Source of the DNA: an uncultured Nitrospirota bacterium
GTDB taxonomy: Bacteria; CG2-30-53-67
DNA: 64,000 nucleotides
Direction: 5' to 3'
NCBI GenBank assembly: GCA_947259355.1
Contig: CAMYMF010000014.1
Location: 9,180-73,179 of the forward strand
The position numbers and the translations under genes are program-made. Below, piece by piece: positions 1,580-19,475 of the stretch. How positions within the stretch are numbered: position 1 is the first letter of the stretch; every line of letters begins with the position of its first letter. The notes below the pieces were generated by a model. That model made no database searches and had not been told where the DNA came from. It was given only the letters and a program-made list of their open reading frames with translations.

Positions 1580-1654
1580 TGGTGGGCGATGCCGGGTTCG
1601 AACCGGCGACTTCCACCGTGTGAAGATGGCACTCTCCCGCTGAGTTAATCGCCC
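1580..1654 (-). tRNA. tRNA-Val (anticodon CAC)
   Basis: 75-nt cloverleaf folded by hand: acceptor GGGCGAT/ATCGCCC, D-stem ACTC/GAGT, anticodon stem CCATC/GGTGG with loop TTCACAC, T-arm GCCGG-TTCGAAC-CCGGC, encoded CCA. Confidence 0.9.
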
Positions 1655-2067: not shown

Positions 2068-2580
2068 CTAGAGCTCGTAGAGCGTATCGTCCACCGATGG
2101 CGGCAGAAACCGCTTGCGCAAACCCGCCATGCCACCGGAGGTTTTGGGGGCAAAGGGATCTTCCCCTTCAAGGATATCGCCCATTTCCTGATCGATCTGT
2201 TCTGGATCCTCTCCGGCCTCCATCCGGCGGATGGCCTCTTCCATGCCGGAGCCAAGCCGCAGGCCGGTGGCATCGAAGAGCCTGCGCATCAATCGGGCTG
2301 CCTGGCGGGGATCCTCCTCGTTCATCCCTTCCGCTTCCCGGGCGAGGACCTGCATGGCCTGCTCCAGTTTACCTTCGTCCATGTCGGGCATGGCGTCTTC
2401 GTCTCCCTCTTCGCGCCCCCTGGAGATGGCAAAGAGAGAAACCTCACGTTCCAGGTCGGCCCGGCCGCATTTGGGGCAATTGGGGCGGCGCTCGGTATTG
2501 ACCGTGCGGGACAGAAAGTTGAAAATCCTGTGGCAGTCGCTGCAGTAGAACTCGTAGATTGGCACGGACTCCCCTCCCAT
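2068..2580 (-). CDS. FmdB-family zinc-ribbon protein with a long acidic C-terminal extension
   Basis: PIYEFYCSDCHRIF...RPNCPKCG gives the CxxC...CxxC zinc ribbon. I placed the start at the internal ATG (MGGESVPIYEF); the ORF stays open up to 2637. Confidence 0.6.
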   Translation of the reverse strand: MGGESVPIYEFYCSDCHRIFNFLSRTVNTERRPNCPKCGRADLEREVSLFAISRGREEGDEDAMPDMDEGKLEQAMQVLAREAEGMNEEDPRQAARLMRRLFDATGLRLGSGMEEAIRRMEAGEDPEQIDQEMGDILEGEDPFAPKTSGGMAGLRKRFLPPSVDDTLYEL

Positions 2581-2995
2581 AGTAGTGCAAACGAAATCAC
2601 CCGGAAACAAAATATCACAAACGGCTGTCACCATCAAAGAAAAACGACGGTTTCCGTTGAATCTTGAACCCCTGCGGTCATGTACGTCCGTTGCAATGAA
2701 CAGTGCCCGGGCCGGCGACAGTCTGTTCGCTCAGGTTTAATCCTCAACATCCGTCGACTTCGAGCTGATTTTCTCCTTCCTGCGAGCGCCTCCCCCCCGA
2801 CGCCATAGCGAGCCCCTTTTTTCAGGGTTTTCAGACAGAAACCCCCCGTTGCCCTCTACCCCTTTTCTATGATATACAAGCTTATCTTCTCAACACCGGG
2901 TTTCTTCCGTTTTATAGGCCTTCGCACGTCACGGTCATGCCGCAGTTTAGGACGAACGCTCAGCCGGATTCGTGCACCTCAGGAAGAGGTGACCA

Positions 2996-5473
2996 GTGGC
3001 CCTTGCACTTCAACGACCGCTCTTTCAGGGTGCGACCAGCGGGATTCTAGATCGGGCTCAGATACGGGCCATCCTCACACGGGTCAAAAACCGGATGATT
3101 CCAGTCCGGGTCTCGTTCAGCCAGGACGCCTGCCTCTATCATGCGTACGTGGAAAAGTTTTGGCCCAACGCAGCCGCGATCGATCTGCGCATGCCGGCGT
3201 GGGGGGATGCTGCAACGGCGCCGTCCATACGGCCCGGCGCACGCATGACCGTCTCCTTCGCCTTCAGGGAGCGGGCGCTTTTCTTCGACACGGGCATCGC
3301 AGGCATATTCAAGCGGGACGTGCGGATCTGGTTTCCCCACGCGCTCTCCGTTTACCCGACCCGGGGCGCCCATCGGCTGGCACACCCCTTTTCGGTGCCC
3401 ATGACGGTGGAGTTTGTAGACCCCCGAACCCAGCGGGGGTGGCGGGTTCATGACCTCGAAGACCTTGGCTACCACGGTCTCAGCTTTCGTTGCGCCGACG
3501 AGGCGCCCCCGCCCCCGGGCATCCGCATTCCCCGTTTGAACCTGTACAGTTTTGAACGCCGCTGTTACGCGACGGCAGCGAGGGTTCTACATGTGAGGGA
3601 GTGTCGAGACGCTGCGGGCAGCTGCTTTCGTCGTGTCAGCGTGATCTTTGCTTCTTCCCACAGAAGGGACGCGCACCGTGCACCGGCTCGGGTCGCCATG
3701 GGAACGGGGCGGGATGAACTGAACCACCCGCCGACCATCCAGAGCCTCCTGAATCAGTGGCTGTACGAGAAGTTGCCGGTAACGTTCAACGATGCGGAAA
3801 AAAGACGCAGCCCAATCCAGGCGGTTCCGCATCCACCCTTTTTCGACGAGGGCGCGCTGGTATTTCGGCTCTTGCCGCAGGGACCGGCAGCGTTTCCCTT
3901 CCGGGTGGGAGAGCAGATCCGGGGCGAGTGTGTCCATCACGACACGCTCTTTCGCTTCGCCACGATTCTGGGGCACAGCGCCGGCGGGCGCATGCGGGTG
4001 GGGATGCCGGTCCGTATCACGCGGCTGCGCAGGAGGCGGACGCCGCGGTGTCCGTCCGTCGGCCACTCTCGTATTCGCATCGCCCTTCGCAACCCGCTCT
4101 CCAACAACATCATTTCAAAGCCCATTGCCGATTTGTCGGAGGATGGCTTCTCAATGTCTCTCGACTACAAACGGGCCATGCTCTTCCCCGGCATGATGAT
4201 TGAGGGGACGCAGCTCCATCTGCCGGACGGCCGGTACAGGATCCCGTCCGTGCAGGTGCTTTACGCCAAAACCCTTCCGTCCTTGCGCGGCCGACCGCGC
4301 TGCCGCGTCGGCTTTGTTTGGAAGCATTTGTCCGATGCGACCCGCCGCGCCATCGGCGACGTGTTGCGAAACCTGCGCCATCCCCGACTGCTCCGGCCAG
4401 GCCACGCGAGCGTCGCGAAGATCTGGGACCTCTATGACCAGGCGGGATTCCTCTATCCGGCAAAGAAAGCGGCCATTTCGCAGATGCAAGAGGAGATCGA
4501 CGAGACCTGGGAAAAGCTCTATGCGCCGGAAACGCCCTTCTTCCTCAACCTCACCTTGACCATAGACGGGCAGATCGTTGGGTCGGGCGCCATTCTTCAG
4601 ATTTATGACAGCACGTGGCTGCTGCAGCATCTCTCCGCCCTTCCCAATCATCCCGCGGCAGTCAGCAAAGAGATTAACCTGGGGCTGGTGGAGGAGCTGA
4701 TGCGCGACCGAAAGATCTGGTATATCAAGACCTATTTTCGGCCGAACAATCCCTGGCCCAACAAGACGTTCCGGGCCTTTGCGGAAAAACGCCTCAAGCC
4801 GGGCGCCTACGATCTGACGCGGTATCACTTCTTTCAGAGAGACCCTTCACCCCTGCCGGTTGCCGGCAGTCTGCCCGCAGGGGTTGCCGTGGGCGCCCTC
4901 AGGCGGGGCGATGGCGAAATCATACGGAATTACTTCGTACGCGCCGGGAAGGTCTTCTTCGCCCGCGCCGAGTCACTTCTCACAACGGATTGCAGTCTCC
5001 GAGAGACGTCTGAGCGCTATCGCAGACGGGGACTTCTGAGAGACCGGCGGATCTTCGTGGCGAAAAAGACCGGGGCCCTCCTGGCTTTCGTGTTGGCCGA
5101 AGACGCATCCTTCGGTTTGAACCTCTCCGGCCTTCTCAATACATGCCGACTCTATCTGCTCACACACGATCCGGTGGTGCTGGCGGACGTGCTGCCCCAC
5201 CTGTTGAACCGGGTCCTGGCGTTCTATCATTCCCGGGGATATCAAAAAGTGCTCCTGGGCGTGTCCGACGGGGCCGGGCCAGTGCTCGCTCCGCTCGGTT
5301 TCGAACCGACGCGGGACTACTACGGCCTCACCTTTCACCGGGAATCCCTGTTGGAGTACCTGCATTTCATTCATGACAAGTACGCGAGGCTCGAGCGCAG
5401 AATGGGAAAAAGGAGGCCCGATCTTCGCAAAGGCAATGGTGTACATCGTCAAGGCCCAGGGATCGTATCATGA
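2996..5473 (+). CDS. tandem PilZ-domain protein fused to a GNAT/acyltransferase-like C-terminal region (function unknown)
   Basis: 825-aa ORF with a GTG start after AGGAAGAGG. Two RxxxR...DxSxxG-type signatures: RGAHR...DLGYHG and RRTPR...DLSEDG. Its stop overlaps the next start (ATGA at 5470-5473). The start codon is uncertain. Confidence 0.6.
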   Translation: MALALQRPLFQGATSGILDRAQIRAILTRVKNRMIPVRVSFSQDACLYHAYVEKFWPNAAAIDLRMPAWGDAATAPSIRPGARMTVSFAFRERALFFDTGIAGIFKRDVRIWFPHALSVYPTRGAHRLAHPFSVPMTVEFVDPRTQRGWRVHDLEDLGYHGLSFRCADEAPPPPGIRIPRLNLYSFERRCYATAARVLHVRECRDAAGSCFRRVSVIFASSHRRDAHRAPARVAMGTGRDELNHPPTIQSLLNQWLYEKLPVTFNDAEKRRSPIQAVPHPPFFDEGALVFRLLPQGPAAFPFRVGEQIRGECVHHDTLFRFATILGHSAGGRMRVGMPVRITRLRRRRTPRCPSVGHSRIRIALRNPLSNNIISKPIADLSEDGFSMSLDYKRAMLFPGMMIEGTQLHLPDGRYRIPSVQVLYAKTLPSLRGRPRCRVGFVWKHLSDATRRAIGDVLRNLRHPRLLRPGHASVAKIWDLYDQAGFLYPAKKAAISQMQEEIDETWEKLYAPETPFFLNLTLTIDGQIVGSGAILQIYDSTWLLQHLSALPNHPAAVSKEINLGLVEELMRDRKIWYIKTYFRPNNPWPNKTFRAFAEKRLKPGAYDLTRYHFFQRDPSPLPVAGSLPAGVAVGALRRGDGEIIRNYFVRAGKVFFARAESLLTTDCSLRETSERYRRRGLLRDRRIFVAKKTGALLAFVLAEDASFGLNLSGLLNTCRLYLLTHDPVVLADVLPHLLNRVLAFYHSRGYQKVLLGVSDGAGPVLAPLGFEPTRDYYGLTFHRESLLEYLHFIHDKYARLERRMGKRRPDLRKGNGVHRQGPGIVS

Positions 5474-6987
5474 AGATACTGCTCATCAAACCGCCGTTGA
5501 ACAAGACCTCCATCATCGGGGACTCCCTCATCGAGCCGCTGGAGCTAGAAATCCTCGCTGCGACGGTGTCGCAGTATCCGTGCAGGATTCTGGACATGCG
5601 GATCGATCCCGATCTCAGGAGTGCTCTCCGGGACTTTAGGCCCGATGTCGTCGGCGTCACGGGCTACACCACCGAGGTGCCGATGGTACGCGCACTGATC
5701 CGTCGGGTAAAGATGCTGGCGCCGTCGGCTTTCACAGTGGTCGGTGGCTGCCACGCATCGGTGGTGCCCGGTGACTTCTTTGCCAGCGGTGTCGACGCGG
5801 TGGCGGTGGGAAACGGGGAGGCCCTCTTCCCCCGTTTACTCGATGCGCGAACCCGGCAGGCAGACCTCGCCTCGGTGACGGGTCTTTGGCTTCGCGCCAA
5901 AGCGGGATATACGTACACGGGCGATCCGCCGCCGCTGAGGGATCTCGATACGCTGCCCCCGCCGGCCCGGTGGCTGACCCAGTCCTATCGGCACCGCTAT
6001 TTCTTTGGACGCAACCGACCGGCTGCGGCCATCGTCACGTCTCGGGGGTGTCCCTTCCGGTGCACTTTCTGCTCCATCTGGAAGATGATGCACGGCAAGT
6101 ATCTGGTCCGGAACGTGGACACGGTGGTGGAGGAGCTGCATGAAATCAGAGAACGGCATGTCTTCATTGCGGATGACAACACCCTATCCCACGCCCGCCA
6201 CGCCGGAAGTCTGGCGACTGCCATCGGGCGGGCCGGTCTTCACAAGCGCTACAAGATGTATGGACGGGCGGATGCCATCGTCGCGCGCCCGGACATCGTG
6301 GCCAAGTGGCGCTCGGTCGGTCTTGAGACGGTCATCATGGGGCTCGAGTCATTCCAGGACGGCAGGCTCTCCCAATTCAACAAGGGCAGTACGGTGGATC
6401 TTCAGAACCGTGCCATTGCAATCCTGAAGGCCAACGGGATCCGGGTGCGGGCCTATTTCATCGTCGATCCTGATTTCACACAGGACGATTTTCAGGCGTT
6501 GCTGGACTACGTCGAGCGTGAAGAAATCACGGAGCCCATGTTCTCCATCCTCACGCCCTTGCCGGGAACGGAGCTCTTTGAACAGTCTAGGGAGCGGCTC
6601 GTTTTGGACCGGCATGAGCTCTTCGACCTCGTCCACGCCGTACTGCCGACGCGACTCCCGCGGCGGCAGTTCTATGCAGAATTCAGCAGGCTTTACCGAA
6701 AGAGCTATCCCCTGAAGAAAATCCTCGGGATCGATGGCGCCCCGCTGCGGCCCGGGCGCCTTGTGGGCGGCGGACTGGCCTATCTCAAGATGCGGGCCAT
6801 TACCCGACGGATGGAACAGGCTTATCGCATTGAGGAGCAGATCCATGCCAAGACTCGTACTGATCAACCCGGTGTGCGACACGAAGCGGGGCATCCAGCG
6901 GCGAAAGATCACGCGCTTTCCCCCCTTGGGGCTGGCCTATCTCGCCGCCGTGACGCCGCCGGACTGGACGGTGACCCTGGTCGATGA
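5470..6987 (+). CDS. B12-binding domain-containing radical SAM protein
   Basis: N-terminal MKILLIKPP...VVGVTGYTT...VVGGCH is a B12-binding-type Rossmann segment. SRGCPFRCTFCS provides the CxxxCxxC cluster motif. Confidence 0.85.
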   Translation: MKILLIKPPLNKTSIIGDSLIEPLELEILAATVSQYPCRILDMRIDPDLRSALRDFRPDVVGVTGYTTEVPMVRALIRRVKMLAPSAFTVVGGCHASVVPGDFFASGVDAVAVGNGEALFPRLLDARTRQADLASVTGLWLRAKAGYTYTGDPPPLRDLDTLPPPARWLTQSYRHRYFFGRNRPAAAIVTSRGCPFRCTFCSIWKMMHGKYLVRNVDTVVEELHEIRERHVFIADDNTLSHARHAGSLATAIGRAGLHKRYKMYGRADAIVARPDIVAKWRSVGLETVIMGLESFQDGRLSQFNKGSTVDLQNRAIAILKANGIRVRAYFIVDPDFTQDDFQALLDYVEREEITEPMFSILTPLPGTELFEQSRERLVLDRHELFDLVHAVLPTRLPRRQFYAEFSRLYRKSYPLKKILGIDGAPLRPGRLVGGGLAYLKMRAITRRMEQAYRIEEQIHAKTRTDQPGVRHEAGHPAAKDHALSPLGAGLSRRRDAAGLDGDPGR

Positions 6988-8299
6988 GAACATCGCGCCG
7001 GCCGTGCTACCCGACGCCGATCTGGTAGGCATTACCTCTTTTACGTCGACCATCAATCGGGCCTACGGGCTGGCGTCGGTTTATCGCGCGCGAACGGTGC
7101 CCGTGGTGATGGGCGGCATTCATCCCACCATGCTCTCTGAAGAGGCCCGGCAGTTTGCGGACAGCGTCGTCCGGGGCGAGGCGGAGGCTGTCTGGCCCCA
7201 GGTGCTGCGGGATGCTCAGGCGGGTTGTTTGAAGCCGCTCTACGAGGGCCGTCCCCAGCGGCTCGCCGATCTGCCCCACCCGAGGCGGGATCTTTTCGAC
7301 CTCGGTTACGCCTGGGGCACGCTGCAGACGTCTCGGGGTTGCCCCATGGACTGCCACTTCTGCTCGGTGACGGCCTTCAATGGGCGGCGATTTCGGCAGA
7401 GACCCGTGGCAGATGTGCTCCAGGAACTCGCAACCATCCCACAACGGCATATCTTCTTTGTGGACGATAACCTGCTGGGATACGGTCGGCAAGCCGAGGC
7501 CCGGGCCGTTGAGCTTTTTCGGGGGATGGTCGAGCGGGGGCTTGGAAAACGGTTCGTGTGCCAAACATCGCTCAATTTTGCCGACAACCCACAGGTGCTC
7601 AAGTGGGCGCAAAAAGCGGGTTGTAAAATGATTTTTGTTGGACTAGAATCCGTTTCAGAGGGTTCTCTGGAGTCTATGGGAAAATCCTATAACCTCAAGA
7701 AAGGGACCGACCAGTATGCCGCATGCATTCGACGCTGCCACGCACACGGAATCGGCGTCATCGGCGCGCTCATTTTCGGAAACGACGAAGACGATCCGGG
7801 AATCTTCGACAGGACCCTCGGCTTTATCCGAACGAGCGGACTGGACGTCATCCAGATCACCTTCGCAACGCCGCTGCCGGGGACCCGTTTGTTCGAGCAG
7901 CTGCAGCGGGAAGGAAGGCTGACACGGACCGATTTTCCGAGAGACTGGAAGGACTACAGCTTTTCCAGGATTCTCTTTCGGACGCGTGGTATGTCGGCCG
8001 AAGATTTCTACCGCGGGATGGTGTACGTGAAAGACCATCTGTACACCCCCATGCCTTTCATCCGGCGGGTGTTCCGAACCCTTCTGGAGACGCGCGATCC
8101 GGCCACGGCGGCGATGGCGTATAAATTGAACAAAGGGTATCGTAGAGGCTACCTTGAAACGGCCTACTTCCAACCTTACTCCTCGATGCACCGAAGGGCT
8201 TCCGCCAGAAAGCCCACCCGGTCCCGCCGGCCCTTTGCCGCCCGCGACGGGAGCCCAAAGGGGCCCGGAAGAAGAGCCGTTGACGATCGATCCGTCTAA
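6845..8299 (+). CDS. B12-binding domain-containing radical SAM protein (second paralog)
   Basis: ATG at 6845 is preceded by GAGGAG. MPRLVLINP...LVGITSFTS...VMGGIH followed by SRGCPMDCHFCS. The ORF is open from 6734, but the 6845 start has the RBS. Confidence 0.85.
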   Translation: MPRLVLINPVCDTKRGIQRRKITRFPPLGLAYLAAVTPPDWTVTLVDENIAPAVLPDADLVGITSFTSTINRAYGLASVYRARTVPVVMGGIHPTMLSEEARQFADSVVRGEAEAVWPQVLRDAQAGCLKPLYEGRPQRLADLPHPRRDLFDLGYAWGTLQTSRGCPMDCHFCSVTAFNGRRFRQRPVADVLQELATIPQRHIFFVDDNLLGYGRQAEARAVELFRGMVERGLGKRFVCQTSLNFADNPQVLKWAQKAGCKMIFVGLESVSEGSLESMGKSYNLKKGTDQYAACIRRCHAHGIGVIGALIFGNDEDDPGIFDRTLGFIRTSGLDVIQITFATPLPGTRLFEQLQREGRLTRTDFPRDWKDYSFSRILFRTRGMSAEDFYRGMVYVKDHLYTPMPFIRRVFRTLLETRDPATAAMAYKLNKGYRRGYLETAYFQPYSSMHRRASARKPTRSRRPFAARDGSPKGPGRRAVDDRSV

Positions 8300-10535
8300 A
8301 ATCAAAAACGAGGTCAACTGCCGCGCTTTCAATCACATTCTCATCTACCTCGAAGAGAATTTTGGGCGCGGGGGGCTTCAGGAGTTGATCGAGAAGACCG
8401 GTATGACCGTGGCCTATCTACGGGATCAGAACAACTGGGTCTCCTGGTCATACTACTGCGATCTGCTCGAGGAGCTGGTGGCCTGGACGGGCGATCCCGG
8501 CGCCCCTTTCAAGGCCGGGACCTATTCGGGCGACAAGCGGGCGTGGGGGTATCTCCACTACGTCTTTTACGCCTTCGGCAACGTGGGGCGCGTGCTGAAG
8601 AAAGCCTCCGAGATCGTCCCCCACTTCAACCGTGGGGCCGAGTGGACCATGCTCGATCTTCAGAAGAACCGGGCGACCATTCGGATACGGATGAAGGAGG
8701 GCTATCCGGCCCGGCGGGTCTGCTGCGAAAGCCGCATGGGGCAGGCCGTTGGTATCCCCAAGGCGTTCGCCATGCCGCCCGGCCGTGCGCGGGAGACCCA
8801 GTGCCAGGCCCAGGGGGCGGATGCCTGTGTCATGGAGGTGGCATGGCTGAACCGCCCGCAGAAACTCTACGGGATCATTGGCGCTCTTCTCGGGGTGCTG
8901 GCCGGCATTGTCTTTCGTGTTGCGGCTCCCGATCATCCCGGGAACATCTTTGCTGCTGCTCTCATCGTGCTCACCGGCTACCTCGCCGGGCGGCATCTCG
9001 ATTACCGGCGGAGCGAAGCCGGCAATGCGCAGATCAATGCGGAGCAGACGGAGGCGCTGGAGGAGTCGGTCAAAACGATCGAGAAAAAGTATGAGGAGCT
9101 GGAGCGGGCCAACGACGGGCTCTTTGCCCTTCAGGAGATCAGCCGGGCCATCACATCCACCCTGCAGCTCGATGAGGTTCTGCAAAAAGTGCTCAAGATG
9201 GCGGTGGAGCGTCTCGGCTTCGATCGCGCAGTGGTCATGCTCGTGGACGAGAAGGAGGGCGTCCTTCGGGAAGGGCGCATCCACGGGGACGAGTCCCTGG
9301 TGGACTATGTGCGCCAGCTTCAGATCTGCATCAGTCCGCGATCACCGGTGGCCGAGCAGGTGCTCTACCGAAGGCAGGGCCAGATCGTCACCCCGGAATA
9401 CATTGCGTCCCAGAATGCCACGCCCTTGGAGAAGCAGATCTTTGAGATAACCCAGACGCCGGAGTATGTGGTGGCGCCGCTTGTGAGCCGGGAGCGGCTT
9501 CTCGGTATTTTGGCGGCCGACCGCGCGCGCTCCGAGGTCCCCATCAAAGAGCAAGACAGAGAGCTGATGGTCAGCCTGGCGAATCAGGTGGCCGTGGCCA
9601 TTGAGAATGCCCGCTCCTTTCTGACCATCGAGGATCTCAACCTCAACCTGGAACGCAGAATCACGGAGCGGACGCAGGCCCTGGAGACGTCCCTCATGGA
9701 GCTGACCGAAGCGCAGGAGCAGCTGATCCACACCGAGAAGATGTCATCCCTGGGGCTCCTCATGTCCGGGGTCGCGCACGAAATCAACAATCCCATCAAT
9801 TTTGCCCACAACGGTCTGCAGGCGATGCAGCAGACACTTCGCAGGATTGAGGCTCTCTCCCGAGCGACCTTCAAGCGCTCGGATAGGCAAACCGCGGATG
9901 CCGCAGGGAAAGGAGCACTCGACGAGGCTCTCAGGGATTCACAGCGCATCATGGAAATCATCCAGACCGGCCTGAACCGCACGCGCAATCTCGTGGCGAG
10001 CCTCAAGCACTTCTCCCGCCGTCAAGGGCGGGACCGGGAGTATATCTCCCTCGAATCGTCGTTGCAATCGGCCCTCACGATTCTGAGCCATGAAATGGCC
10101 GATCGGATTGTCGTTGAGATGGATGTGCGCGCCCGTGCAACGATCTTCGGTCATCCCGATCAGCTCAGCCAGGCCTTCCTGAACCTGATCCACAATGCCA
10201 TCCAAGCCATCCCGGAGACGGGTCATATATGGATCACGGTGGACGCGTCCGATACCGGCAGTGCTCAGCTGAGCATCCGGGACGACGGCAAAGGCATCGC
10301 GCCCGAGGATCTGCCCCGGATCTTCGAGCCCTTTTTCACCACCAAGAAATCAGGCGAGGGAACCGGTCTGGGGATGAGCATCTGCCGCCGGATCATTGAA
10401 AACCACGGCGGAACCATCGAGATATCGAGCCGGCTCGGGGAGGGCACAGAGGTCGCCGTGAAGCTTCCGGTGAGCCGCGAGGAGCAGGCGCGTGACGCGG
10501 GCCTGCCGCGGGAGAAGTCGATTGGAGCCGATTGA
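8154..10535 (+). CDS. sensor histidine kinase (V4R-like N-terminal domain, 2 TM segments, GAF, HisKA, HATPase)
   Basis: H-box GVAHEINNPINF, G-box GEGTGLGMS, and a GAF-like region (LGFDRAVVMLVDE...). The N-terminal domain ends in ETQCQAQGADACVMEV. The start is uncertain; an alternative is TTG at 8280. Confidence 0.85.
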   Translation: MKRPTSNLTPRCTEGLPPESPPGPAGPLPPATGAQRGPEEEPLTIDPSKIKNEVNCRAFNHILIYLEENFGRGGLQELIEKTGMTVAYLRDQNNWVSWSYYCDLLEELVAWTGDPGAPFKAGTYSGDKRAWGYLHYVFYAFGNVGRVLKKASEIVPHFNRGAEWTMLDLQKNRATIRIRMKEGYPARRVCCESRMGQAVGIPKAFAMPPGRARETQCQAQGADACVMEVAWLNRPQKLYGIIGALLGVLAGIVFRVAAPDHPGNIFAAALIVLTGYLAGRHLDYRRSEAGNAQINAEQTEALEESVKTIEKKYEELERANDGLFALQEISRAITSTLQLDEVLQKVLKMAVERLGFDRAVVMLVDEKEGVLREGRIHGDESLVDYVRQLQICISPRSPVAEQVLYRRQGQIVTPEYIASQNATPLEKQIFEITQTPEYVVAPLVSRERLLGILAADRARSEVPIKEQDRELMVSLANQVAVAIENARSFLTIEDLNLNLERRITERTQALETSLMELTEAQEQLIHTEKMSSLGLLMSGVAHEINNPINFAHNGLQAMQQTLRRIEALSRATFKRSDRQTADAAGKGALDEALRDSQRIMEIIQTGLNRTRNLVASLKHFSRRQGRDREYISLESSLQSALTILSHEMADRIVVEMDVRARATIFGHPDQLSQAFLNLIHNAIQAIPETGHIWITVDASDTGSAQLSIRDDGKGIAPEDLPRIFEPFFTTKKSGEGTGLGMSICRRIIENHGGTIEISSRLGEGTEVAVKLPVSREEQARDAGLPREKSIGAD

Positions 10536-11262
10536 CTACAAGGCCTATCCCATTCTCTTTGTCGATGATGAGTCGGAGAACCTGGATATCTTCTCCATCA
10601 ATTTCCGGGATACCTTCACCATCCGAACGGCGCAGAGTGGCCCCGAAGGTTTGGCCCTGTTGGCGCGCGAGTCGGTGGCGCTGGTTCTCTCGGACCAGCG
10701 GATGCCCGACATGTCGGGCATCCAGTTCCTTCACGAGGTGCAACGGCGCCATCCAGATATTGTCCGGGTCCTCGTGACGGCCTACTCTGATCTGGATTTC
10801 GCCAGCGAGGAGACCGCCGCCGGTCCTTTACTCTACGGCTATGTCCTGAAGCCCTGGGAGGGGAAGCTGCTCCGGATGCTCCTGATGCGGGGGATCGAGC
10901 AGTTCCATCTCGTGTCCACCCTCAAGCGTTTGCAGGCGGCGTCGACCGCGCAGCATTCCTTCTCCGATAGAGCACCCGAGATGGTTCGGGAAATTGAACG
11001 TGCGCTGGCAGCCCTTCGGAGCTATTTGGAGAAGATTCCCAAGAACATCGCGGTCCTGCGCCTTTCCGACCCGGGTGGTCTGGATCACGCATTCTGGGCA
11101 AAGGCTGGAACCCTCTGCCGTCAAGAACTGACCCGAATCCGTTCCCGTGTGGCCGAGTTGTACAACCTGGGGGCCAGCTGCCGGGTTGACGGAAAAGCCC
11201 ATCAGGATGGCGAGAACGCTCCCGGAGAGGGCGGTGGCCGAAGAGACAGGGAGCGGCCATAA
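10492..11262 (+). CDS. response regulator (REC domain plus uncharacterised C-terminal domain)
   Basis: ILFVDDE...LSDQRMPDMSG...LVTAY receiver motifs. The ORF overlaps the end of the kinase gene. The start is uncertain. Confidence 0.75.
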   Translation: MTRACRGRSRLEPIDYKAYPILFVDDESENLDIFSINFRDTFTIRTAQSGPEGLALLARESVALVLSDQRMPDMSGIQFLHEVQRRHPDIVRVLVTAYSDLDFASEETAAGPLLYGYVLKPWEGKLLRMLLMRGIEQFHLVSTLKRLQAASTAQHSFSDRAPEMVREIERALAALRSYLEKIPKNIAVLRLSDPGGLDHAFWAKAGTLCRQELTRIRSRVAELYNLGASCRVDGKAHQDGENAPGEGGGRRDRERP

Positions 11263-11355: not shown

Positions 11356-11384
11356 TTGACGCCCATGGGGGCCAGGGATATACT
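11356..11384 (+). promoter_or_regulatory. candidate sigma-70 promoter of the OmpA-like gene
   Basis: TTGACG (11356-11361), 17-nt spacer, TATACT (11379-11384), 42 nt upstream of the ATG. Confidence 0.45.
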
Positions 11385-11425: not shown

Positions 11426-12130
11426 ATGAAGAGAATGAGACAGTTGGTGATCTTGCTGATGGCGGCGGCTTTCGTCTTTTCCATGACCGGCTGCGCCCAG
11501 TGGCAGCAGTCAACGAAGACGACCAAGGGGGCCGTAACCGGTGCGGCGGTGGGGGCCGCCACGGGCTATCTGCTCAAACAGAACGATCCCTCCCGGCGGG
11601 CCAAGGCCACTGCCATTGGCGCGGCGGTGGGCGCGGCGGCGGGCGGTCTGGTTGGGCGCTACATGGAGAACCAGGCGCGAGAGCTTCAGGATATTCGGGA
11701 CGCGCAGGTCCGGCTCGAACAGGACAAAGTTTTTCTCACATTTGAGAGCGGGATCCTCTTCGACGTGAACTCGACGGCCATGAAGCCTGGGGCCATGCAG
11801 AACCTGAACAAGGTGGCCGACGTGATGACCCGCTATCCTGAGACGAACATACTCGTTGCAGGCCACACCGACAGCAGCGGTTCGGATCAGTACAACCAGA
11901 GGCTCTCAGAGGACCGAGCCCGCTCCGTGGCCAACTACCTGGGCTCCCATGGGGTCAGTTCATACCGGATCAGCACGGTGGGCTATGGTGAGTCGATGCC
12001 GATCGCGAGCAACAACACCCCGGAGGGGCGACAGGCCAACCGCCGAGTGGAAATCGAGATCAAAGCCAATCAGGCCCTTTACGAGCAGCAGCAACAGCAG
12101 ATGCCGGCCGGAGGGTATCCGGGGCGTTAG
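11426..12130 (+). CDS. OmpA-family lipoprotein (glycine-zipper plus OmpA_C peptidoglycan-binding domain)
   Basis: Lipobox FSMTGC. Gly/Ala-rich zipper. OmpA_C motif NILVAGHTDSSGSDQYNQRLSEDRARSV...NRRVEIEI. RBS AGGGAGGG. Confidence 0.9.
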   Translation: MKRMRQLVILLMAAAFVFSMTGCAQWQQSTKTTKGAVTGAAVGAATGYLLKQNDPSRRAKATAIGAAVGAAAGGLVGRYMENQARELQDIRDAQVRLEQDKVFLTFESGILFDVNSTAMKPGAMQNLNKVADVMTRYPETNILVAGHTDSSGSDQYNQRLSEDRARSVANYLGSHGVSSYRISTVGYGESMPIASNNTPEGRQANRRVEIEIKANQALYEQQQQQMPAGGYPGR

Positions 12131-12165
12131 GCGTCCGGGCGTCACAGCCTGAGTGATCCCATGAG

Positions 12166-12201
12166 CGGCCCTGAAGATACCGTCGGGGCCGTTCTTTTTT
12201 T
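12166..12201 (+). terminator. rho-independent terminator candidate
   Basis: Stem CGGCCC (12166-12171) pairs with GGGCCG (12186-12191), followed by TTCTTTTTTT. The loop is long (14 nt). Confidence 0.5.
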
Positions 12202-12580
12202 CCTTCCCCGTGAAGCGGAATCGTTTCCCCAATCCCCACTTGCGGCCGAAAACCAATGCAGAATCGACAATATGCCGATTCCTGAATCTAGCGTGAAACC
12301 CTGCTGCCGGCGGCAGACATTCTTGTCCGCACCCGGAATCAGGTCTGTATCTCTGGATCCGGAGGGCATTTTGAATCGCGCGTCTTCGCTGGCGTTCCTG
12401 TGCCCGTATCCCTGTTGTTGCTCGGCAGCCCCGTCGTGGGCGGGTCGGTTTTTCCAGGAAAGTGAACAAGAGAACCAAGCGTTGCAGACAAAGAATCCCC
12501 ATCGCCCCCCTGTGAATCCTCCAGACGGCTCTTTCCGGAAAGAGCGTCGTCTTTTGTATCACTTCACATACGATAATCGG

Positions 12581-12610
12581 TTGACAAGGCCTCGCGAAAC
12601 GTCATAAGAT
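12581..12610 (+). promoter_or_regulatory. candidate sigma-70 promoter of the HAMP kinase operon
   Basis: TTGACA (12581-12586), 17/18-nt spacer, ATAAGAT (12604-12610), about 35 nt before the ATG at 12644. Confidence 0.4.
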
Positions 12611-12643: not shown

Positions 12644-14161
12644 ATGAAACTGACTTTGACCAGAAAGGTCTTTCTCGGCTACTTCCTGATGATCTGTCTG
12701 GTGGTGGTGGAGGGGGCCTATGCCATTTTTGAGCTCAACCGGCTCAACCAGCTCTCCCGCTCCATGGTTCGGGGCGAGGTGGCCTCCCTCGAACTGGAGA
12801 AAAAGCTCATCGATCTTTTTCTCTCAGAGGTGAGCCACGAGAAGAAGTATCTGGTCGTGCAGGACCCCGATTTCCTGGAGCTTGCTCTCTCCAAGAGCCG
12901 TGAGTTCGAGGAGACCCTCCTGCGGTTGACAGCGGGCGCTGCAGGGGGTGCAGCCTTGTCTGAACTGGAGGCAGTCCGGGATCTACACGATCGCCACGTT
13001 CAGAGTTTCACCGCCGCTCTGGAGGAGGCCAAGCCGGGTGCGGGCAAGAAACTTCAGGACCCATCGGGCTGGACCACGTCGAGTGAGTCGGGCGTCCGGG
13101 CAGTGACCCGCAAGATCGAGTCACTGATCCGGACGGAAGAAATGGAAATGGCCCGCAAGATGGGGCAGGCCCAGCTCATCAGCTGGCGGGCTTACAAGAT
13201 CACCATTGGCATCCTGATCTCCATGGGAGCCTTCGGCCTGATCACTGCCTGGCTGCTCACCCGCAGCATACGCGTTCCCATCCAGAAGCTAACCCGCGGC
13301 ACGCGTGACATCGCGCAGGGGGTTTTCGAAAACCGCATCGAAGTGAGCTCGCGCGATGAGTTTGCCGATCTGGCGGGCGCCTTCAACGCGATGACGGGCA
13401 AGCTGGCCGAGCTCGAGAAGGTGAAGCGGGAGATCATCTCCAACATTTCCCATGAGCTGCGCACTCCCCTGACCTCCATGAAGGAGGCCACCGAACTTCT
13501 CTACGACCAGGTGCCCGGGCCAGTCAACGATACCCAGAAACGGCTACTCGGGATCATCCGGGAGGGCATCGGTAAGCTGGTGCGAATGATCAACAATCTG
13601 CTCGACCTGTCGAAGATCCGAGCCGGGATGATGCAGTATCATTTCGAAAAGGGAGACGTCGCCCATGTCATCTCAGTGGCCAGGGCGAACGTTCGTTTTC
13701 TGGCGGAGCTGCGGTGGCTGGTTTTGGAGGTCGACATTGAACCGGGGCTGCCTCCCCTCTACATGGATTCGGACAAGATTGAACAGGTGTTGAACAACCT
13801 TCTCAGCAACGCGATCAAGTTCACCCCCGAGGGAGGCCGCATCCGGATTCGTGCGTCACGTTCCTCCTTCGTTCCAAAGACGGGCGCCTCACCCGTGGAG
13901 GTGGTAAGGGTCTGCGTGGAAGACAACGGCACGGGCATTGACTCCGAGCAACTCACGGGAATCTTCGACCGTTACCAGCAGGCCGATCCGGCCCTGGGGA
14001 TCGGGACCCAGATCAAAGGGACCGGCCTGGGCCTTTCCATCTGCAAATACTACGTCGAAGAGCACGGCGGCAGGATCTGGGCCGAAAGCGAAGACGGCGC
14101 GGGAAGCCGATTCTATTTCGATCTTCCGTTGAAGGCAAAGCGCGAGGTGGTTCCTGCATGA
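12644..14161 (+). CDS. HAMP-domain sensor histidine kinase
   Basis: H-box ISHELRTPLTS, N-box LLSNAIKFTP, G-box GTGLGLSICK. There is one TM segment at each end of a periplasmic-type region. Confidence 0.9.
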   Translation: MKLTLTRKVFLGYFLMICLVVVEGAYAIFELNRLNQLSRSMVRGEVASLELEKKLIDLFLSEVSHEKKYLVVQDPDFLELALSKSREFEETLLRLTAGAAGGAALSELEAVRDLHDRHVQSFTAALEEAKPGAGKKLQDPSGWTTSSESGVRAVTRKIESLIRTEEMEMARKMGQAQLISWRAYKITIGILISMGAFGLITAWLLTRSIRVPIQKLTRGTRDIAQGVFENRIEVSSRDEFADLAGAFNAMTGKLAELEKVKREIISNISHELRTPLTSMKEATELLYDQVPGPVNDTQKRLLGIIREGIGKLVRMINNLLDLSKIRAGMMQYHFEKGDVAHVISVARANVRFLAELRWLVLEVDIEPGLPPLYMDSDKIEQVLNNLLSNAIKFTPEGGRIRIRASRSSFVPKTGASPVEVVRVCVEDNGTGIDSEQLTGIFDRYQQADPALGIGTQIKGTGLGLSICKYYVEEHGGRIWAESEDGAGSRFYFDLPLKAKREVVPA

Positions 14162-14715
14162 AGCCGTCCTCTATCTATCAGATCCTTGCAGGCGCCTGTC
14201 TGCTGGCGCTGTTCGCGGCCTGTACGCTGCCGCCCTCTCTCCAAGGGGTTCTCGCAGAGCCCGATGATGGTCAGGGGGAGACAAATTTGCTCCTGCATCC
14301 CACCGACGAGTATTTCCTGAAGGTGGACCAGCTCTTCGCCGAAGGGAATTATCGCGACGCATTGCGTCGGACCCGTCGGATCTACAAGGAAGCTTCCGAC
14401 CCGGCGGTCGAAGAGGAGGCCCTCTTTCGCATAGCGGTGATTCTCTCTTACGGGGATAACCCGGATCGCAATTACAAGGAAGCGTCAGACTTTGCTCGTA
14501 ATTTCCTCAAACAGTATCCCGAAAGTCGGCGGACCCTGTCGATCAGATCAATTCTCACCCTGATTCTCGAAGTTCAGCGAGGAGAAGCGGAGATTTCCAC
14601 GCTCAAAGGCTACAACGCCATCCAGGAGGAGAAGATTCTGCGTCTCCAAGAGGATCTGCTGAAGATCAAGGAAATAGACGTGCAGCTCGAGGAACAGAAG
14701 AAGAAGCTGGAGTAG
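14158..14715 (+). CDS. lipoprotein with a TPR-like segment and C-terminal coiled coil (function unknown)
   Basis: Signal/lipobox LLALFAAC. ATGA overlap with the kinase stop. The heptad-like C-terminus EEKILRLQEDLLKIKEIDVQLEEQKKKLE. Confidence 0.6.
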   Translation: MKPSSIYQILAGACLLALFAACTLPPSLQGVLAEPDDGQGETNLLLHPTDEYFLKVDQLFAEGNYRDALRRTRRIYKEASDPAVEEEALFRIAVILSYGDNPDRNYKEASDFARNFLKQYPESRRTLSIRSILTLILEVQRGEAEISTLKGYNAIQEEKILRLQEDLLKIKEIDVQLEEQKKKLE

Positions 14716-14718
14716 CCC

Positions 14719-16083
14719 ATGAAGAAAGAACGGATTCTTGTCGTCGATGACGATCCGAATATTCTGGAAGTGCTGGCAATGCGCCTGGAGTCGAAGGGGT
14801 TCGATGCGGTCAAGGCCGAGAGCGCGGAGTCGGCCTTAGACCAGATGACGGGGCAGCCCTTCGATCTGGTCCTGACGGATCTTCGGATGTCGGGACTGGG
14901 CGGCATGGACCTGCTCGAACAGGTCCACGAGAAACACACCGAGACCCCCGTGATCATTCTCACTGCCCACGGCACCATCCCCAATGCTGTGGAAGCCATG
15001 CAGAAGGGGGCATTCAGTTACTTGACCAAACCCTTTGAGGATCGGGAACTCTCCATTCACATTGCCCGTGCGCTGGAGAAACGGAACCTGACGCGCAAGA
15101 TACACAACCTGGAAACCCTCGTGGAGGACCGATTCAGCTTCAAGAATATCGTTGGCAAGGGGCAGGCCATGCAGGCCATATTCGAACAGATCTCTCAGGT
15201 GAGTCCCACCGATTCGACGATTCTCCTGACCGGGGAAAGCGGTACCGGTAAGGAGCTCTTTGCCCGGGCTATTCACGCGCGCAGTCATCGCGCGGCCGGG
15301 CCGTTCATCGCGGTGAACTGTGGTGCCATTCCGGAAAACCTGCTGGAGAACGAACTGTTCGGCCATGCCAAGGGGGCCTACACCGGGGCCCATGCCAGCC
15401 AGGAAGGCTTCTTTTCCCGGGCCGACGGCGGGACCATCTTTCTCGATGAAATCGGTGAGACCCCGCTCTCCATACAGGTCAAGTTGCTGCGCGTGCTGCA
15501 GGAAAAGGAGTTCGACCCGATCGGTTCGCAGCGCTCGGTCAAAGTCGATGTCCGTGTGCTGGCCGCGACCAATCAGAAGTTAGCAAAGGCCGTGCAGGCG
15601 GGAAGCTTCCGGGAGGACCTGTACTACCGGATTCAGGTGATCCCCATTCACATTCCCTCTCTGCGCGAACGCAAAGAGGACATCCCCTTTCTCATCGATC
15701 ACTTCATCCGCAAGTACGCAAGAATCATGAACAGGGATGTTTACGGCATCGATCCGAATGTGGTCCAGTTCCTGATGCAACGGGACTGGCCGGGCAATGT
15801 GCGGGAGCTGGAAAACCGAATCGAGCAGGCTATGGTGATGGCCCAGGGCACCACCCTGGGTCAGTCGGACTTCGTCTTGCTCCAGCAGAAACCTGAGCAG
15901 TCCGACTTCATGACGTTCAAGCAGGCCAAGAACGCTGTCGAAAAGCAGTATGTAACCCACCTGCTGAAACTGACGGGAGGCCATATTACCAATGCGGCGC
16001 AACTGGCGGGGAAACAGCGGGCCGACCTGTACAACCTGATGAAGAAGCACAAGATTCAGCGGAATGATTTCCGCGACACCTAG
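14719..16083 (+). CDS. sigma-54-dependent Fis-family response regulator (NtrC type)
   Basis: REC domain (LVLTDLRMSG), AAA+ Walker A GESGTGKE, sigma-54 contact loop GAYTGA, and a C-terminal HTH. Confidence 0.92.
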   Translation: MKKERILVVDDDPNILEVLAMRLESKGFDAVKAESAESALDQMTGQPFDLVLTDLRMSGLGGMDLLEQVHEKHTETPVIILTAHGTIPNAVEAMQKGAFSYLTKPFEDRELSIHIARALEKRNLTRKIHNLETLVEDRFSFKNIVGKGQAMQAIFEQISQVSPTDSTILLTGESGTGKELFARAIHARSHRAAGPFIAVNCGAIPENLLENELFGHAKGAYTGAHASQEGFFSRADGGTIFLDEIGETPLSIQVKLLRVLQEKEFDPIGSQRSVKVDVRVLAATNQKLAKAVQAGSFREDLYYRIQVIPIHIPSLRERKEDIPFLIDHFIRKYARIMNRDVYGIDPNVVQFLMQRDWPGNVRELENRIEQAMVMAQGTTLGQSDFVLLQQKPEQSDFMTFKQAKNAVEKQYVTHLLKLTGGHITNAAQLAGKQRADLYNLMKKHKIQRNDFRDT

Positions 16084-18469: not shown

Positions 18470-18553
18470 GAATCCCCCATGGAACTGGTCGGCCGCACGG
18501 ATCGGGGCAGAAACGACCCACATCATATCAGGGATAATTCTTTAGATCAAGAA

Positions 18554-19465
18554 TTATTCGACGGGTCCGTGGTTTCTTCGCATCCAGCGTCGGTGCATCC
18601 AGAGCCACTGCTCCGGATAGCACCGAATGAAAGACTCCAGCGCCGCCAAGTACTGTCGGGTCACGTTGCGCACATCGGTCTCGCGATCGCCCGTCGACTC
18701 GAACACCATGGGATCGCTGACATGGAGCGTGTGCGTGTTGTCGGGGCCTCGTACCAGGAAGACCGTCATCACAACGGCGCCGCTTGTAATAATGAGTCGC
18801 GCCACGTCCGCATTGGTGGGCGCGGGATGGCCGAGAAAGTCAATCAGCAACCCCTGGCTGCTGCCCCGCTGGTCGCACAGAATGCCCACGATCTCTCCTT
18901 TCTTGAGGGCCGACAGGATCTTGCGCATGGCATGCTGCTTCACGATGACCCGGTTGCCGTGGGCCTCCCGCCGCCCGACGATGTAGCGGTGCAGGAGCCC
19001 CACATTGGCTTCCCGCCCGATGACGTGCGCGGGATAGCCCTTGATGGCAATGCTCTGGGCGAGAAGCTCCCAGTTGCCGAAATGTCCCGTCAGGAGCAGC
19101 ACGCCTCGCCCGGCCCGACGGGCCCGGCCGATCTTGTCCACCTCCTCCGCGTGGACGAGCCCCGGGAGTTTTTCCGGGGTCAGGCGGGGCAGGGCCGCGA
19201 ACTCCAGCAGCGCGCTTCCCAGTTGCCGGCAGGAAGCCTTGAGGATCTGTCGGATCTCGGCCTCCGTTTTCTCTTCGCCGAAAACGAGACGCAGATTGGA
19301 CAAGGCGATTCTCTTGCGCCTTCCATCGACGTAATAATAGAGCGATCCGAGGGTGGCGCCCGCTGCGGTGAGAAGCGGCCGGGGAACGACCGAAAGGGCC
19401 GAGAGCACCCCCACCGCTATGACGGAGAGAATCCATACGAAAAAACCCCGGCCCCGCGCAGCCAT
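18554..19465 (-). CDS. lipid A biosynthesis (LpxL/HtrB-family) acyltransferase
   Basis: Catalytic HFGNWE motif, an N-terminal TM segment, and KRIALSNLRLVF. The ATG at 19465 follows AGGAGG; the longer ORF extending up to 19750 lacks an RBS. Confidence 0.8.
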   Translation of the reverse strand: MAARGRGFFVWILSVIAVGVLSALSVVPRPLLTAAGATLGSLYYYVDGRRKRIALSNLRLVFGEEKTEAEIRQILKASCRQLGSALLEFAALPRLTPEKLPGLVHAEEVDKIGRARRAGRGVLLLTGHFGNWELLAQSIAIKGYPAHVIGREANVGLLHRYIVGRREAHGNRVIVKQHAMRKILSALKKGEIVGILCDQRGSSQGLLIDFLGHPAPTNADVARLIITSGAVVMTVFLVRGPDNTHTLHVSDPMVFESTGDRETDVRNVTRQYLAALESFIRCYPEQWLWMHRRWMRRNHGPVE

Positions 19466-19475
19466 CTCCTGCCTC

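Follow-up and report, generated by a model that had tools for sequence, protein, structure and literature searches.

The question raised by the locus described here is what a protein with the signatures of a cyclic di-GMP (c-di-GMP) receptor may be doing in one tight gene block with two cobalamin-dependent radical S-adenosylmethionine (SAM) enzymes and a sensor kinase. The block occupies positions 2996–11262 of a 64,000-nucleotide stretch of DNA from an uncultured Nitrospirota bacterium (assembly GCA_947259355.1, contig CAMYMF010000014.1, positions 9,180 to 73,179), which as a whole is called the window below. To our knowledge, few c-di-GMP effectors are enzymes in their own right, PixB is the only PilZ–GNAT protein that has been studied, and we know of no substrate for it. 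The answer proposed here is that the first gene, g1, encodes a tandem PilZ protein fused to a domain with the fold of tandem GCN5-related N-acetyltransferases (GNATs), an assignment that is supported by sequence comparison and structure prediction and from which c-di-GMP binding and catalysis are presumed. Together with the four genes that follow, it would form a plausible c-di-GMP-gated pathway of acyl transfer and methylation, for which we infer the gating, the catalysis, the shared substrate and the ligand of the sensor. The cassette consists of five open reading frames (ORFs):

2996–5473, plus strand: g1, 825 amino acids (aa), two modules of a PilZN-like barrel and a PilZ domain, followed by a tandem-GNAT domain
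5470–6987, plus strand: g2, 505 aa, B12-binding radical SAM enzyme, with its start inside the ATGA shared with the end of g1
6845–8299, plus strand: g3, 484 aa, B12-binding radical SAM enzyme with DUF4070
8280–10535, plus strand: g4, 751 aa from TTG 8280, sensor histidine kinase
10522–11262, plus strand: g5, 246 aa from TTG 10522, receiver domain with a degenerate dimerization and histidine phosphotransfer (DHp) stub

Tandem PilZ modules and a tandem-GNAT fold in gene 1

Three regions can be distinguished in the g1 protein:

3170–3667, plus strand, residues ~59–224: module 1, PilZN-like barrel and PilZ-1
3848–4339, plus strand, residues ~285–448: module 2, PilZN-like barrel and PilZ-2
4403–5413, plus strand, residues ~470–806: tandem-GNAT fold domain, from an AlphaFold2 model and Foldseek

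The pair of motifs by which c-di-GMP-binding PilZ domains are recognized, RxxxR and D/NxSxxG some 20–30 residues apart, is found twice in g1. In PilZ-1, RGAHR at residues 123–127 is followed by DLGYHG at residues 156–161, in which Gly takes the place of the usual Ser; in PilZ-2, RRRRTPR at residues 345–351 (with R347 and R351) and DLSEDG at residues 379–384 are spaced by 27 residues. These positions agree exactly with those given in an earlier reading of the letters of this DNA (the original prediction). That reading had counted two PilZ domains; both are present, but each appears to be part of a larger PilZN-like plus PilZ module, and it is this larger unit that is duplicated. When residues ~59–224 and ~285–448 were compared with hhalign, they aligned with a probability of 97.6% (E 3.6e-12), so that a unit of about 165 residues is repeated inside g1.

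Orthologs of g1 at 77%, 44% and 24% identity match the Pfam PilZ model (PF07238) at the positions corresponding to those in g1, with PilZNR just ahead. Relative to a gathering cut-off of 22.5 bits, the PF07238 scores among orthologs and relatives are 25.3 (P0002), 23.0 (P0004), 74.7 (P0007) and 27.7 bits (P0033). The matches at the position of module 1 cover residues 123–206 of P0002 and 128–228 of P0004, and matches at the position of module 2 occur in P0005, P0008, P0012, P0014 and P0033. The PilZNR model, with a cut-off of 23, scores 22.5 bits over residues 77–107 of P0004 and 14.7 bits in P0003. In the PilZ domain that adjoins the C-terminal domain, as seen in 149 family sequences, the Arg is conserved in 140, and the second motif, D-[IL]-S-x-x-G, retains its Asp in 110, its Ser in 128 and its Gly in 143; most members show the first motif as R-S-x-R, with a spacing of i, i+3. 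The PilZ identity of g1, which is an assignment by sequence, is thus carried by the matches in orthologs, the motifs, their conservation across the family and the internal repeat. The apparent order of a PilZN-like barrel followed by a PilZ domain with RxxxR and D/NxSxxG, together with the PilZNR and PilZ matches in orthologs, resembles that of YcgR-type receptors. In contrast to these, the module in g1 is duplicated, is fused to a domain with an enzyme fold, and has no flagellar context.

A search of PDB sequences with the g1 family profile yielded a single match at chance level (E 0.064). Regarding the C-terminal half, the Pfam acetyltransferase models found this domain in none of the 15 family members scanned, g1 included. 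The evidence comes from structure prediction. The AlphaFold2 model of residues 441–825 (385 residues, from an alignment of 149 sequences) has a predicted local distance difference test score (pLDDT) of 94.1 and a predicted template modelling score (pTM) of 0.90. When this model was compared by Foldseek with the PDB, acyltransferases of the GNAT family made up almost all of the top matches, and many of these were tandem GNATs; the best was 2wpw (E 1.6e-12, probability 1.00). Among the matches listed are 2wpw from the clavulanate pathway, 7q3a (MAB_4324), VipF, the Clostridium glucosamine N-acetyltransferase 5kf1, a histidine acetyltransferase and N-myristoyltransferases. At the level of the predicted fold it is confirmed that the C-terminus of g1 consists of two consecutive GNAT folds; the original prediction had called this region GNAT-like by pattern, which is upheld and can be made more exact.

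The likeness to the solved tandem GNATs (2wpw, 7q3a, VipF, 5kf1 and N-myristoyltransferase) lies in the presence of two GNAT folds in one chain, with probabilities of 1.00 and E-values from 1e-12 to 1e-7 over about 350 columns. The differences are considerable: identities are only 10–17%, template modelling scores 0.35–0.47 and root-mean-square deviations 6–9 Å, and g1 is without a canonical P-loop. The g1 family furthermore has features of its own, namely an invariant GLNLSxL(T/L)N loop, a TWxxxH strand and the fusion to PilZ. The two GNAT halves together have about 30 polar or aromatic positions that are invariant or nearly so.

PixB as a precedent

The closest precedent for g1 is PixB (MXAN_2604) of Myxococcus xanthus, a PilZ-PilZ-GNAT effector that binds c-di-GMP in vitro (Kuzmich et al. 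2021, PMC8316039). Its acetyltransferase domain is required for function, binding of c-di-GMP is required during development, and c-di-GMP has been proposed to raise the acetyltransferase activity (PMC8316039). Both proteins carry two PilZ domains followed by a GNAT-type domain, with landmarks at R121, R331 and beyond residue 451 in PixB as compared to 123–127, 347–351 and ~470 in g1; this likeness is one of domain order and spacing. Both PilZ domains of PixB lack the Ser of the second motif, as does PilZ-1 of g1. On the other hand, the GNAT domain of PixB is recognized by Pfam, which is the case for none of the 15 family members mentioned above, and no radical SAM genes have been reported with pixB. 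An approximate PixB query, put together from primer-encoded peptides, found no candidate.

Since PixB has been characterized, the architecture of g1 is not without precedent, and a c-di-GMP-controlled acyltransferase is as a concept not new. The statement in the original prediction that no characterized system has this composition therefore has to be narrowed. What stands is that neither the family of PilZ–tandem-GNAT proteins nor their conserved partnership, nor the coupling of the clade of the window with a pair of cobalamin radical SAM enzymes, is described in the literature and annotation that were searched.

Two cobalamin radical SAM enzymes

The products of g2 and g3 had been predicted to combine a B12-binding segment with a CxxxCxxC radical SAM core, and this is borne out by Pfam. 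For g2, PF02310 scores 65.7 bits and PF04055 59.4 bits, both above the cut-offs; for g3, PF02310 scores 43.3 bits and PF04055 53.6 bits, and these as well as PF13282 (DUF4070) exceed their respective cut-offs. The cysteine motifs, CPFRCTFC in g2 (6049–6072) and CPMDCHFC in g3 (7340–7363), lie exactly where they had been placed. The N-terminal B12-binding Rossmann domain followed by a CxxxCxxC core is shared with class B radical SAM enzymes such as the hopanoid C-3 methylase HpnR, HpnJ, BchE, PhpK and the MCR glutamine methylase. Unlike these, g2 and g3 come near no equivalog cut-off, and the cassette is without hopanoid, bacteriochlorophyll or phosphonate genes. The best NCBIfam score of g2 is to HpnR (TIGR04367; 251.9 bits against a cut-off of 650), and that of g3 is to HpnJ (82 bits against 578); on HpnR, g3 scores 78.3 bits. 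There is also weak NCBIfam similarity, far under the cut-offs, to the radical SAM proteins ApyD and rSAM_ocin_1 of pathways for ribosomally synthesized and post-translationally modified peptides (RiPPs). As no cut-off of an NCBIfam family is reached, the view that the pair has no assigned pathway is sustained. The nearest solved chains, all distant, are CysS, TokK, OxsB and 9ccb, with g3 matching 9ccb_A at E 2.3e-12. The entry code 9ccb is reportedly mentioned in work on MgmA, which is an MCR glutamine methylase. The cassette provides these two orphan cobalamin radical SAM enzymes with a context that can be tested.

Gene starts, overlaps and conservation of the cassette

The original prediction had each of the four junctions overlapping, and on re-examination all of them do, by 4, 143, 20 and 14 nt, although the starts of g4 and g5 had to be moved. 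Translation of g1 starts at GTG 2996, preceded by the ribosome-binding site GAGGTGA, and its N-terminus, MALALQRPLF, is kept in orthologs. The start of g3 is best placed at ATG 6845, with GAGGAG 8 nt upstream and an N-terminus that is conserved across homologs of 44–87% identity, the first 38 residues being kept even among those at 44–48%. It follows that g2 extends 143 nt into g3 (6845–6987), where it is read in another frame and encodes an Arg/Gly/Pro-rich tail of 47 residues. This tail is probably functionless read-through, since it is not conserved and since g2 is shorter elsewhere: it measures 471 aa in L002, ending about 16 codons past the g3 start, and about 471 aa, by an ORF call made here, in L011. 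For g4, the most likely start as judged from comparison with orthologs is TTG 8280, not 8154; it yields a protein of 751 aa, which equals the length of the ortholog in L001, it is preceded by GGAAGAAGAG, and it gives the overlap of 20 nt. The most likely start of g5 is TTG 10522, not 10492, since the orthologs begin with MEPIDYK; this results in the overlap of 14 nt.

Upstream of g1 the following region was considered:

2638–2995: leader, between g1 and the divergent FmdB-type zinc-ribbon gene (2068–2637, minus strand), without a recognizable element

The leader gave no Rfam match at E<=1, and thus no c-di-GMP riboswitch or other RNA, and no sigma-54 promoter beyond chance was found upstream of g1. 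Neither the leader nor the gene junctions contain a credible short ORF with a ribosome-binding site. The short ORFs in the leader look non-coding, in line with the earlier remark that no gene for a precursor peptide is visible there. The PADLOC defence-system models gave no meaningful match, only generic radical SAM similarity of 20–22 bits to PDC-M51A.

Word-indexed searches of 5.8e9 proteins returned only four close homologs of g1, and a second search with alignment added none. The full five-gene set is found in L001/L010 (annotated as 'uncultured Nitrospirae bacterium') at 73–87% identity, with flanks as in the window, and in a Hainich bin (L011), where g1 to g5 are 42, 61, 70, 61 and 51% identical and where the flanks are unrelated save for an OmpA-like gene. 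Two further loci, L002 and L004, both of which stop at the contig edge, include g1, g2 and either the whole of g3 or its start, and in L004 the start of g4 is present too; the context of g1, g2 and the truncated g3 in L002 differs from that in the window and in L011. No more than two lineages that are clearly distinct have the full set, namely the group of the window, L010 and L004 and that of L011 and L002. A metagenome scan for relatives of g2 gave only two short contigs, and a g2 homolog in L090 (41% identical) has no g1 signal in 317 nt of upstream sequence. Co-occurrence of the five genes in related genomes was therefore found as expected, though on few lineages. The overlaps at each junction and the joint recurrence in L010 and L011, in the latter with unrelated flanks, speak for the earlier view that the ORFs form one unit. 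They constitute a translationally coupled cassette, which is probably also linked to the next gene downstream:

11426–12130, plus strand: YiaD-family glycine-zipper/OmpA-like lipoprotein gene (NF053611, 237 bits, cut-off 175)

In L011 a 70% identical gene follows the cassette at the same position, whereas the other flanks are unrelated. The YiaD-like gene is, from this comparison, a probable sixth conserved member or tightly linked neighbour. It is preceded by a promoter-like site (11356–11384) and followed by a terminator-like hairpin with a 12-bp stem (12163–12200).

The wider PilZ–tandem-GNAT family

Proteins with the architecture of g1 are far more widespread than the five-gene set. An exhaustive profile search with the PilZ plus C-terminal-domain module returned 1697 clusters at E<=1e-3 and at least 448, clustered at 50% identity, at E<=1e-30. 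The members are typically 680–700 aa long, the match covers the second PilZ module and everything up to and including the tandem GNAT, and annotation sources label them 'hypothetical protein'. A scan of species-representative genomes with a 10-sequence query gave 249 relatives. The best 80 of these belong mostly to the Thermodesulfobacteriota (Desulfobacterota), and further to Geobacteraceae, Spirochaetota, Campylobacterota, Myxococcota (Polyangiaceae) and others. In 71 loci with usable flanks, the following genes recur within 6 kb of the g1-family gene:

class I SAM methyltransferase of about 265 aa: 42 of 71 loci
gene with the g4-type module of N-domain, transmembrane (TM) segment and GAF: 38 of 71 loci
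the class I methyltransferase and the g4-type module together: 33 of 71 loci
B12 radical SAM genes: 16 of 71 loci
MR_MLE enzymes, similar to N-acyl-amino-acid racemase or dipeptide epimerase: 8 of 71 loci
FadL/TodX outer-membrane porins: 7 of 71 loci

In 21 loci the g4-like gene is the next one downstream and is read in the same direction; the gap is at most 45 nt in 15 of these. Most lineages have an HD-GYP domain, with the motifs HDYGK, HHE and GYP intact, at the end of this partner in place of the kinase. In L024, L033, L066, L072, L086 and about 20 more loci, the gene after the g1 homolog encodes a protein of 640–700 aa with a g4-type N-domain, two TM helices, GAF and HD-GYP. As far as could be found in the literature searched, these N-domain–TM–GAF–HD-GYP proteins are an undescribed family of sensor-phosphodiesterases.

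Three subtypes of radical SAM genes can be distinguished in the family loci. The g2–g3 pair of the window is one; another is a PhpK-like gene of 535 aa, which adjoins the g1 homolog on its downstream side in L006, L013 and L015 and is separated from it by one gene in L014; the last is g3-like, with homologs at 44–48% identity to g3 that adjoin g1-family genes in L012, L032, L087 and L088. The class I methyltransferase of the family is absent from the window. That it would as a general rule be replaced by radical SAM enzymes was considered and rejected, as both occur in 10 of the 16 loci that have radical SAM genes.

Variation in domain composition was also observed. P0057 is a natural fusion of the PilZ–tandem-GNAT protein with the class I methyltransferase of the neighbourhood (39% identity, E 2e-59), and P0013, of 354 aa, is a C-terminal (tandem-GNAT) domain that stands alone. 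In P0025 and P0070, a NERD domain and a Ser/Thr protein kinase precede the PilZ–tandem-GNAT part. Judging from these gene neighbourhoods, what is conserved is not the five-gene set but a core in which the PilZ–tandem-GNAT gene is accompanied by a V4R/H-NOX-like–GAF sensor and a class I SAM methyltransferase, and the version in the window, with two radical SAM enzymes and a kinase output, is a rare variant specific to its clade.

Some loci with more distant relatives, at 25–29% identity, show other surroundings. In L006, a gene called as a sigma-54-dependent response regulator is divergent from the PilZ–GNAT gene. Crude ORF calls put an ORF of cluster c15 upstream of the g1 homolog in L006, L012, L013, L015 and L016. 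A MoxR-type AAA ATPase (cluster c17) is encoded near the g1 homolog in L006, L013, L015 and L016, and a DUF58/VWA gene in L006 only. The cassette in the window has none of these c15, c17 and DUF58/VWA genes of L006-type loci.

The sensor kinase and its degenerate partner

The g4 protein can be divided as follows:

~8280–8864, plus strand: V4R/H-NOX-like N-domain, about 195 residues, with three invariant Cys
8865–8927 and 8946–8999, plus strand: two TM helices
~9168–9608, plus strand: GAF domain (Pfam, 51 bits)
9771–9794, plus strand: HisKA with intact H-box VAHEINNP
~10152–10475, plus strand: HATPase_c (Pfam, 111 bits)

With the H-box His and HATPase_c, g4 has the hallmarks of a histidine kinase. 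Of its earlier description as a V4R/GAF kinase, the GAF and kinase domains are secure, while V4R is weakly supported: PF02830 scores 18.6–19.9 bits, under its cut-off of 31. Among 39 homologous N-domains, 27 have a weak V4R match (best E 6.3e-5) and 21 an Arabinose_bd match, and in the PDB the N-domain profile matched H-NOX structures, though marginally (E 0.004). H-NOX-associated kinases and HD-GYP/EAL response regulators are known from c-di-GMP circuits controlled by H-NOX or V4R sensors. What is shared is the principle that the output, a kinase or HD-GYP, is governed by a small domain that binds a ligand. The present sensor differs in that the matches of its N-domain are marginal, in having three invariant Cys instead of a heme-binding His pattern, and in being part of one chain with two TM helices and GAF.

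The g5 protein had been taken for a response regulator, but is in fact a degenerate receiver–DHp stub. Its receiver (PF00072, 60.6 bits) is intact, with DD, D58, T and K, and the closest NCBIfam model is that of a NosR-family protein combining a receiver (REC) with a c-di-GMP phosphodiesterase (116 bits). Alignment with its REC-HisKA-HATPase orthologs, from L006 and L011, shows that 10 aa are missing at the H-box, that the His is changed to Arg (MVREIERAL, 10981–11007), and that the ATPase domain is absent; the C-terminus is a remnant of DHp with no known output domain. By this alignment, g5 is a decayed form of the REC-HisKA-HATPase protein found at the same position in these two loci.

A possible pathway and its alternatives

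That a c-di-GMP receptor–tandem-GNAT enzyme, two cobalamin radical SAM tailoring enzymes and a dedicated sensor serve one pathway is a proposal that in our judgement has about an even chance of being right. According to it, c-di-GMP would bind to the PilZ modules of g1 and thereby switch the GNAT domain, by analogy with what has been proposed for PixB. The substrate of the GNAT domain would be a small molecule, which may resemble an amino acid or a lipid and which would be acylated at an amine; g2 and g3 would act on this molecule as well, methylation of unactivated carbons being their most likely reaction. A hydrophobic or redox ligand would be perceived by g4, a cytoplasmic sensor kinase anchored in the membrane, and the signal would pass through g5. 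In most relatives, the HD-GYP phosphodiesterase of the sensor module could feed directly back on the PilZ receptor. In the clade of the window, this output would be replaced by a phosphorelay, and two B12 radical SAM enzymes would operate with no class I methyltransferase, unlike in most relatives. As to the nature of the product, the MR_MLE enzymes (8 loci) and FadL/TodX porins (7 loci) in the neighbourhoods hint weakly at an N-acyl amino-acid-like or hydrophobic small molecule.

It may even be that a complete circuit exists, in which c-di-GMP licenses the synthesis of a methylated N-acyl molecule, amino-acid- or lipid-like, and in which the partner senses this molecule or its precursor and resets c-di-GMP via HD-GYP or a kinase relay. 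In this full form the idea is improbable; if true, the circuit would connect a second messenger with a diffusible or membrane-borne signal, a link that would be widespread among anaerobic bacteria and has so far gone undescribed. The neighbourhood of the family, with its sensor, methyltransferase, radical SAM, racemase-like and FadL genes, offers handles for finding the product of the putative c-di-GMP-gated acyltransferase. Since the version in the window is compact, comprising three enzymes and a sensor of its own, it is attractive for heterologous reconstitution.

Several observations weigh against the proposed pathway. The g1 sequence itself has no match in Pfam even at E 10, and none in NCBIfam. 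The original prediction would have abandoned the PilZ assignment in such a case, but the orthologs do match and the evidence from the family overrides the lack of a match in this one member. The Gly in the second motif of PilZ-1 is likewise unfavourable. The AlphaFold2 model of full-length g1, made from 5 sequences, is poor (pLDDT 46.5), so that the PilZ folds and an interface between PilZ and GNAT are not visible. The canonical P-loop, Q/RxxGxG/A at beta4-alpha3, is missing from the clade of the window, which has AAVSKE at residues 554–559; in most of the family the first GNAT half has (K/R)(K/R)AGxA at this place, with the G in 119 of 149 sequences. The second half has no P-loop at all, and a near-invariant SDxGLNLS(D/E)LTN loop is found there. 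The GNAT domain of this clade, having no canonical acyl-CoA P-loop, is therefore a putative enzyme with a presumed acyl donor. Because g2 and g3 meet the cut-off of no radical SAM family, 'methyltransferase' denotes merely the commonest chemistry of their class, and the loci that carry both enzyme types indicate that class I methyltransferases and radical SAM enzymes are not simple substitutes. Finally, no substrate gene, transporter or precursor was identified within the window.

The precedent of PixB can also be taken further than was done above. If g1 were a PixB-like protein acyltransferase, acting at high c-di-GMP on Lys residues or N-termini of regulatory or envelope proteins, then g2 and g3 would modify a protein after translation, in the manner of the MCR glutamine C-methyltransferase, and not a metabolite, and the cassette would be a signalling output. 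The layout shared with PixB fits this idea, as does the presence of the protein-directed tandem GNATs VipF and N-myristoyltransferase (NMT) among the Foldseek matches, of 9ccb_A as the nearest solved chain to g3, and of several signalling proteins (g4 and g5) in the cassette. We nevertheless consider it unlikely. The likeness to PixB is one of layout, and Pfam sees a GNAT domain in PixB and none in the g1 family; the match between g3 and 9ccb is weak, HpnJ and HpnR scoring higher in NCBIfam; and the recurrent neighbours are small-molecule enzymes (class I methyltransferase and MR_MLE) and FadL/TodX porins. A different view of the same protein holds that the tandem GNAT is a non-catalytic pseudo-enzyme, a scaffold for ligand binding or docking through which c-di-GMP controls the sensor or the radical SAM partner by contact. 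The loss of the P-loop-like Gly in the clade of the window, together with a C-terminal half that never had a P-loop, agrees with such a role, and so do the strongest conserved linkage, which is to a signalling protein and often translationally coupled, and the fusion of other family members to Ser/Thr kinases. However, some 30 near-invariant polar and aromatic residues in both GNAT halves, the existence of standalone C-terminal domains such as P0013, and the methyltransferase fusion in P0057 with the enzymes in the neighbourhood suggest chemistry, which makes a pseudo-enzyme distinctly unlikely.

The combination of enzymes further calls to mind a RiPP or lipopeptide pathway, with B12 radical SAM C-methyltransferases and a GNAT maturing a ribosomal peptide whose small gene was missed. 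Both types of maturase are known in RiPP pathways, and in the nostolysamides a tandem GNAT acylates Lys (PMC13060382); the similarity to ApyD and rSAM_ocin_1 points the same way. The scores to these RiPP families are far under the cut-offs, though, and genes for a protease, a transporter or a recognition element are absent from the cassette. No plausible short ORF with a ribosome-binding site is present in the leader or at the junctions, and a precursor or peptidase was not noticed among the recurrent neighbour clusters of the family loci. Since no precursor ORF was found, this origin of the cassette is disfavoured and seems very improbable. It could also be argued that the genes merely share ancestry in one lineage and have no common function, as the full set is present in only two clearly distinct lineages and as the g2 homolog in L090 lacks a g1 signal upstream. 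Such incidental adjacency is scarcely credible in view of the overlapping start and stop codons at the junctions, the maintenance of the set amid unrelated flanks, the fusion in P0057, and the linkage of the g1 family to radical SAM, sensor and methyltransferase genes that recurs in Thermodesulfobacteriota, Spirochaetota, Campylobacterota and Myxococcota.

Flanking genes

Other features of the window near the cassette are:

372–1487: alanine dehydrogenase gene
1583–1654, minus strand: tRNA gene (Rfam, 61.4 bits), between the alanine dehydrogenase and FmdB-type genes
2068–2637, minus strand: FmdB-type zinc-ribbon gene, divergent from g1
16880–18526, minus strand: gene for a REC-GGDEF-HD-GYP protein, about 5.6 kb downstream of the cassette
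18554–19750, minus strand: lipid A biosynthesis acyltransferase-like gene, beside the REC-GGDEF-HD-GYP gene

An ORF at 12161–12607 was rejected as a gene, as its translation looks non-coding. A second tight block, at 12644–16083, comprises a HAMP histidine kinase, a small TPR-like protein and a sigma-54 response regulator. The best matches of this regulator are GlrR and the PEP-CTERM-box response regulator, the latter at 402 bits against a cut-off of 503. In L001, a PEP-CTERM protein is encoded between the OmpA gene and the kinase/regulator block, where the window has only the non-coding-looking ORF just mentioned. The two genes at 16880–19750 place, by position alone and with no linkage claimed, further c-di-GMP- and lipid-related content near the cassette.

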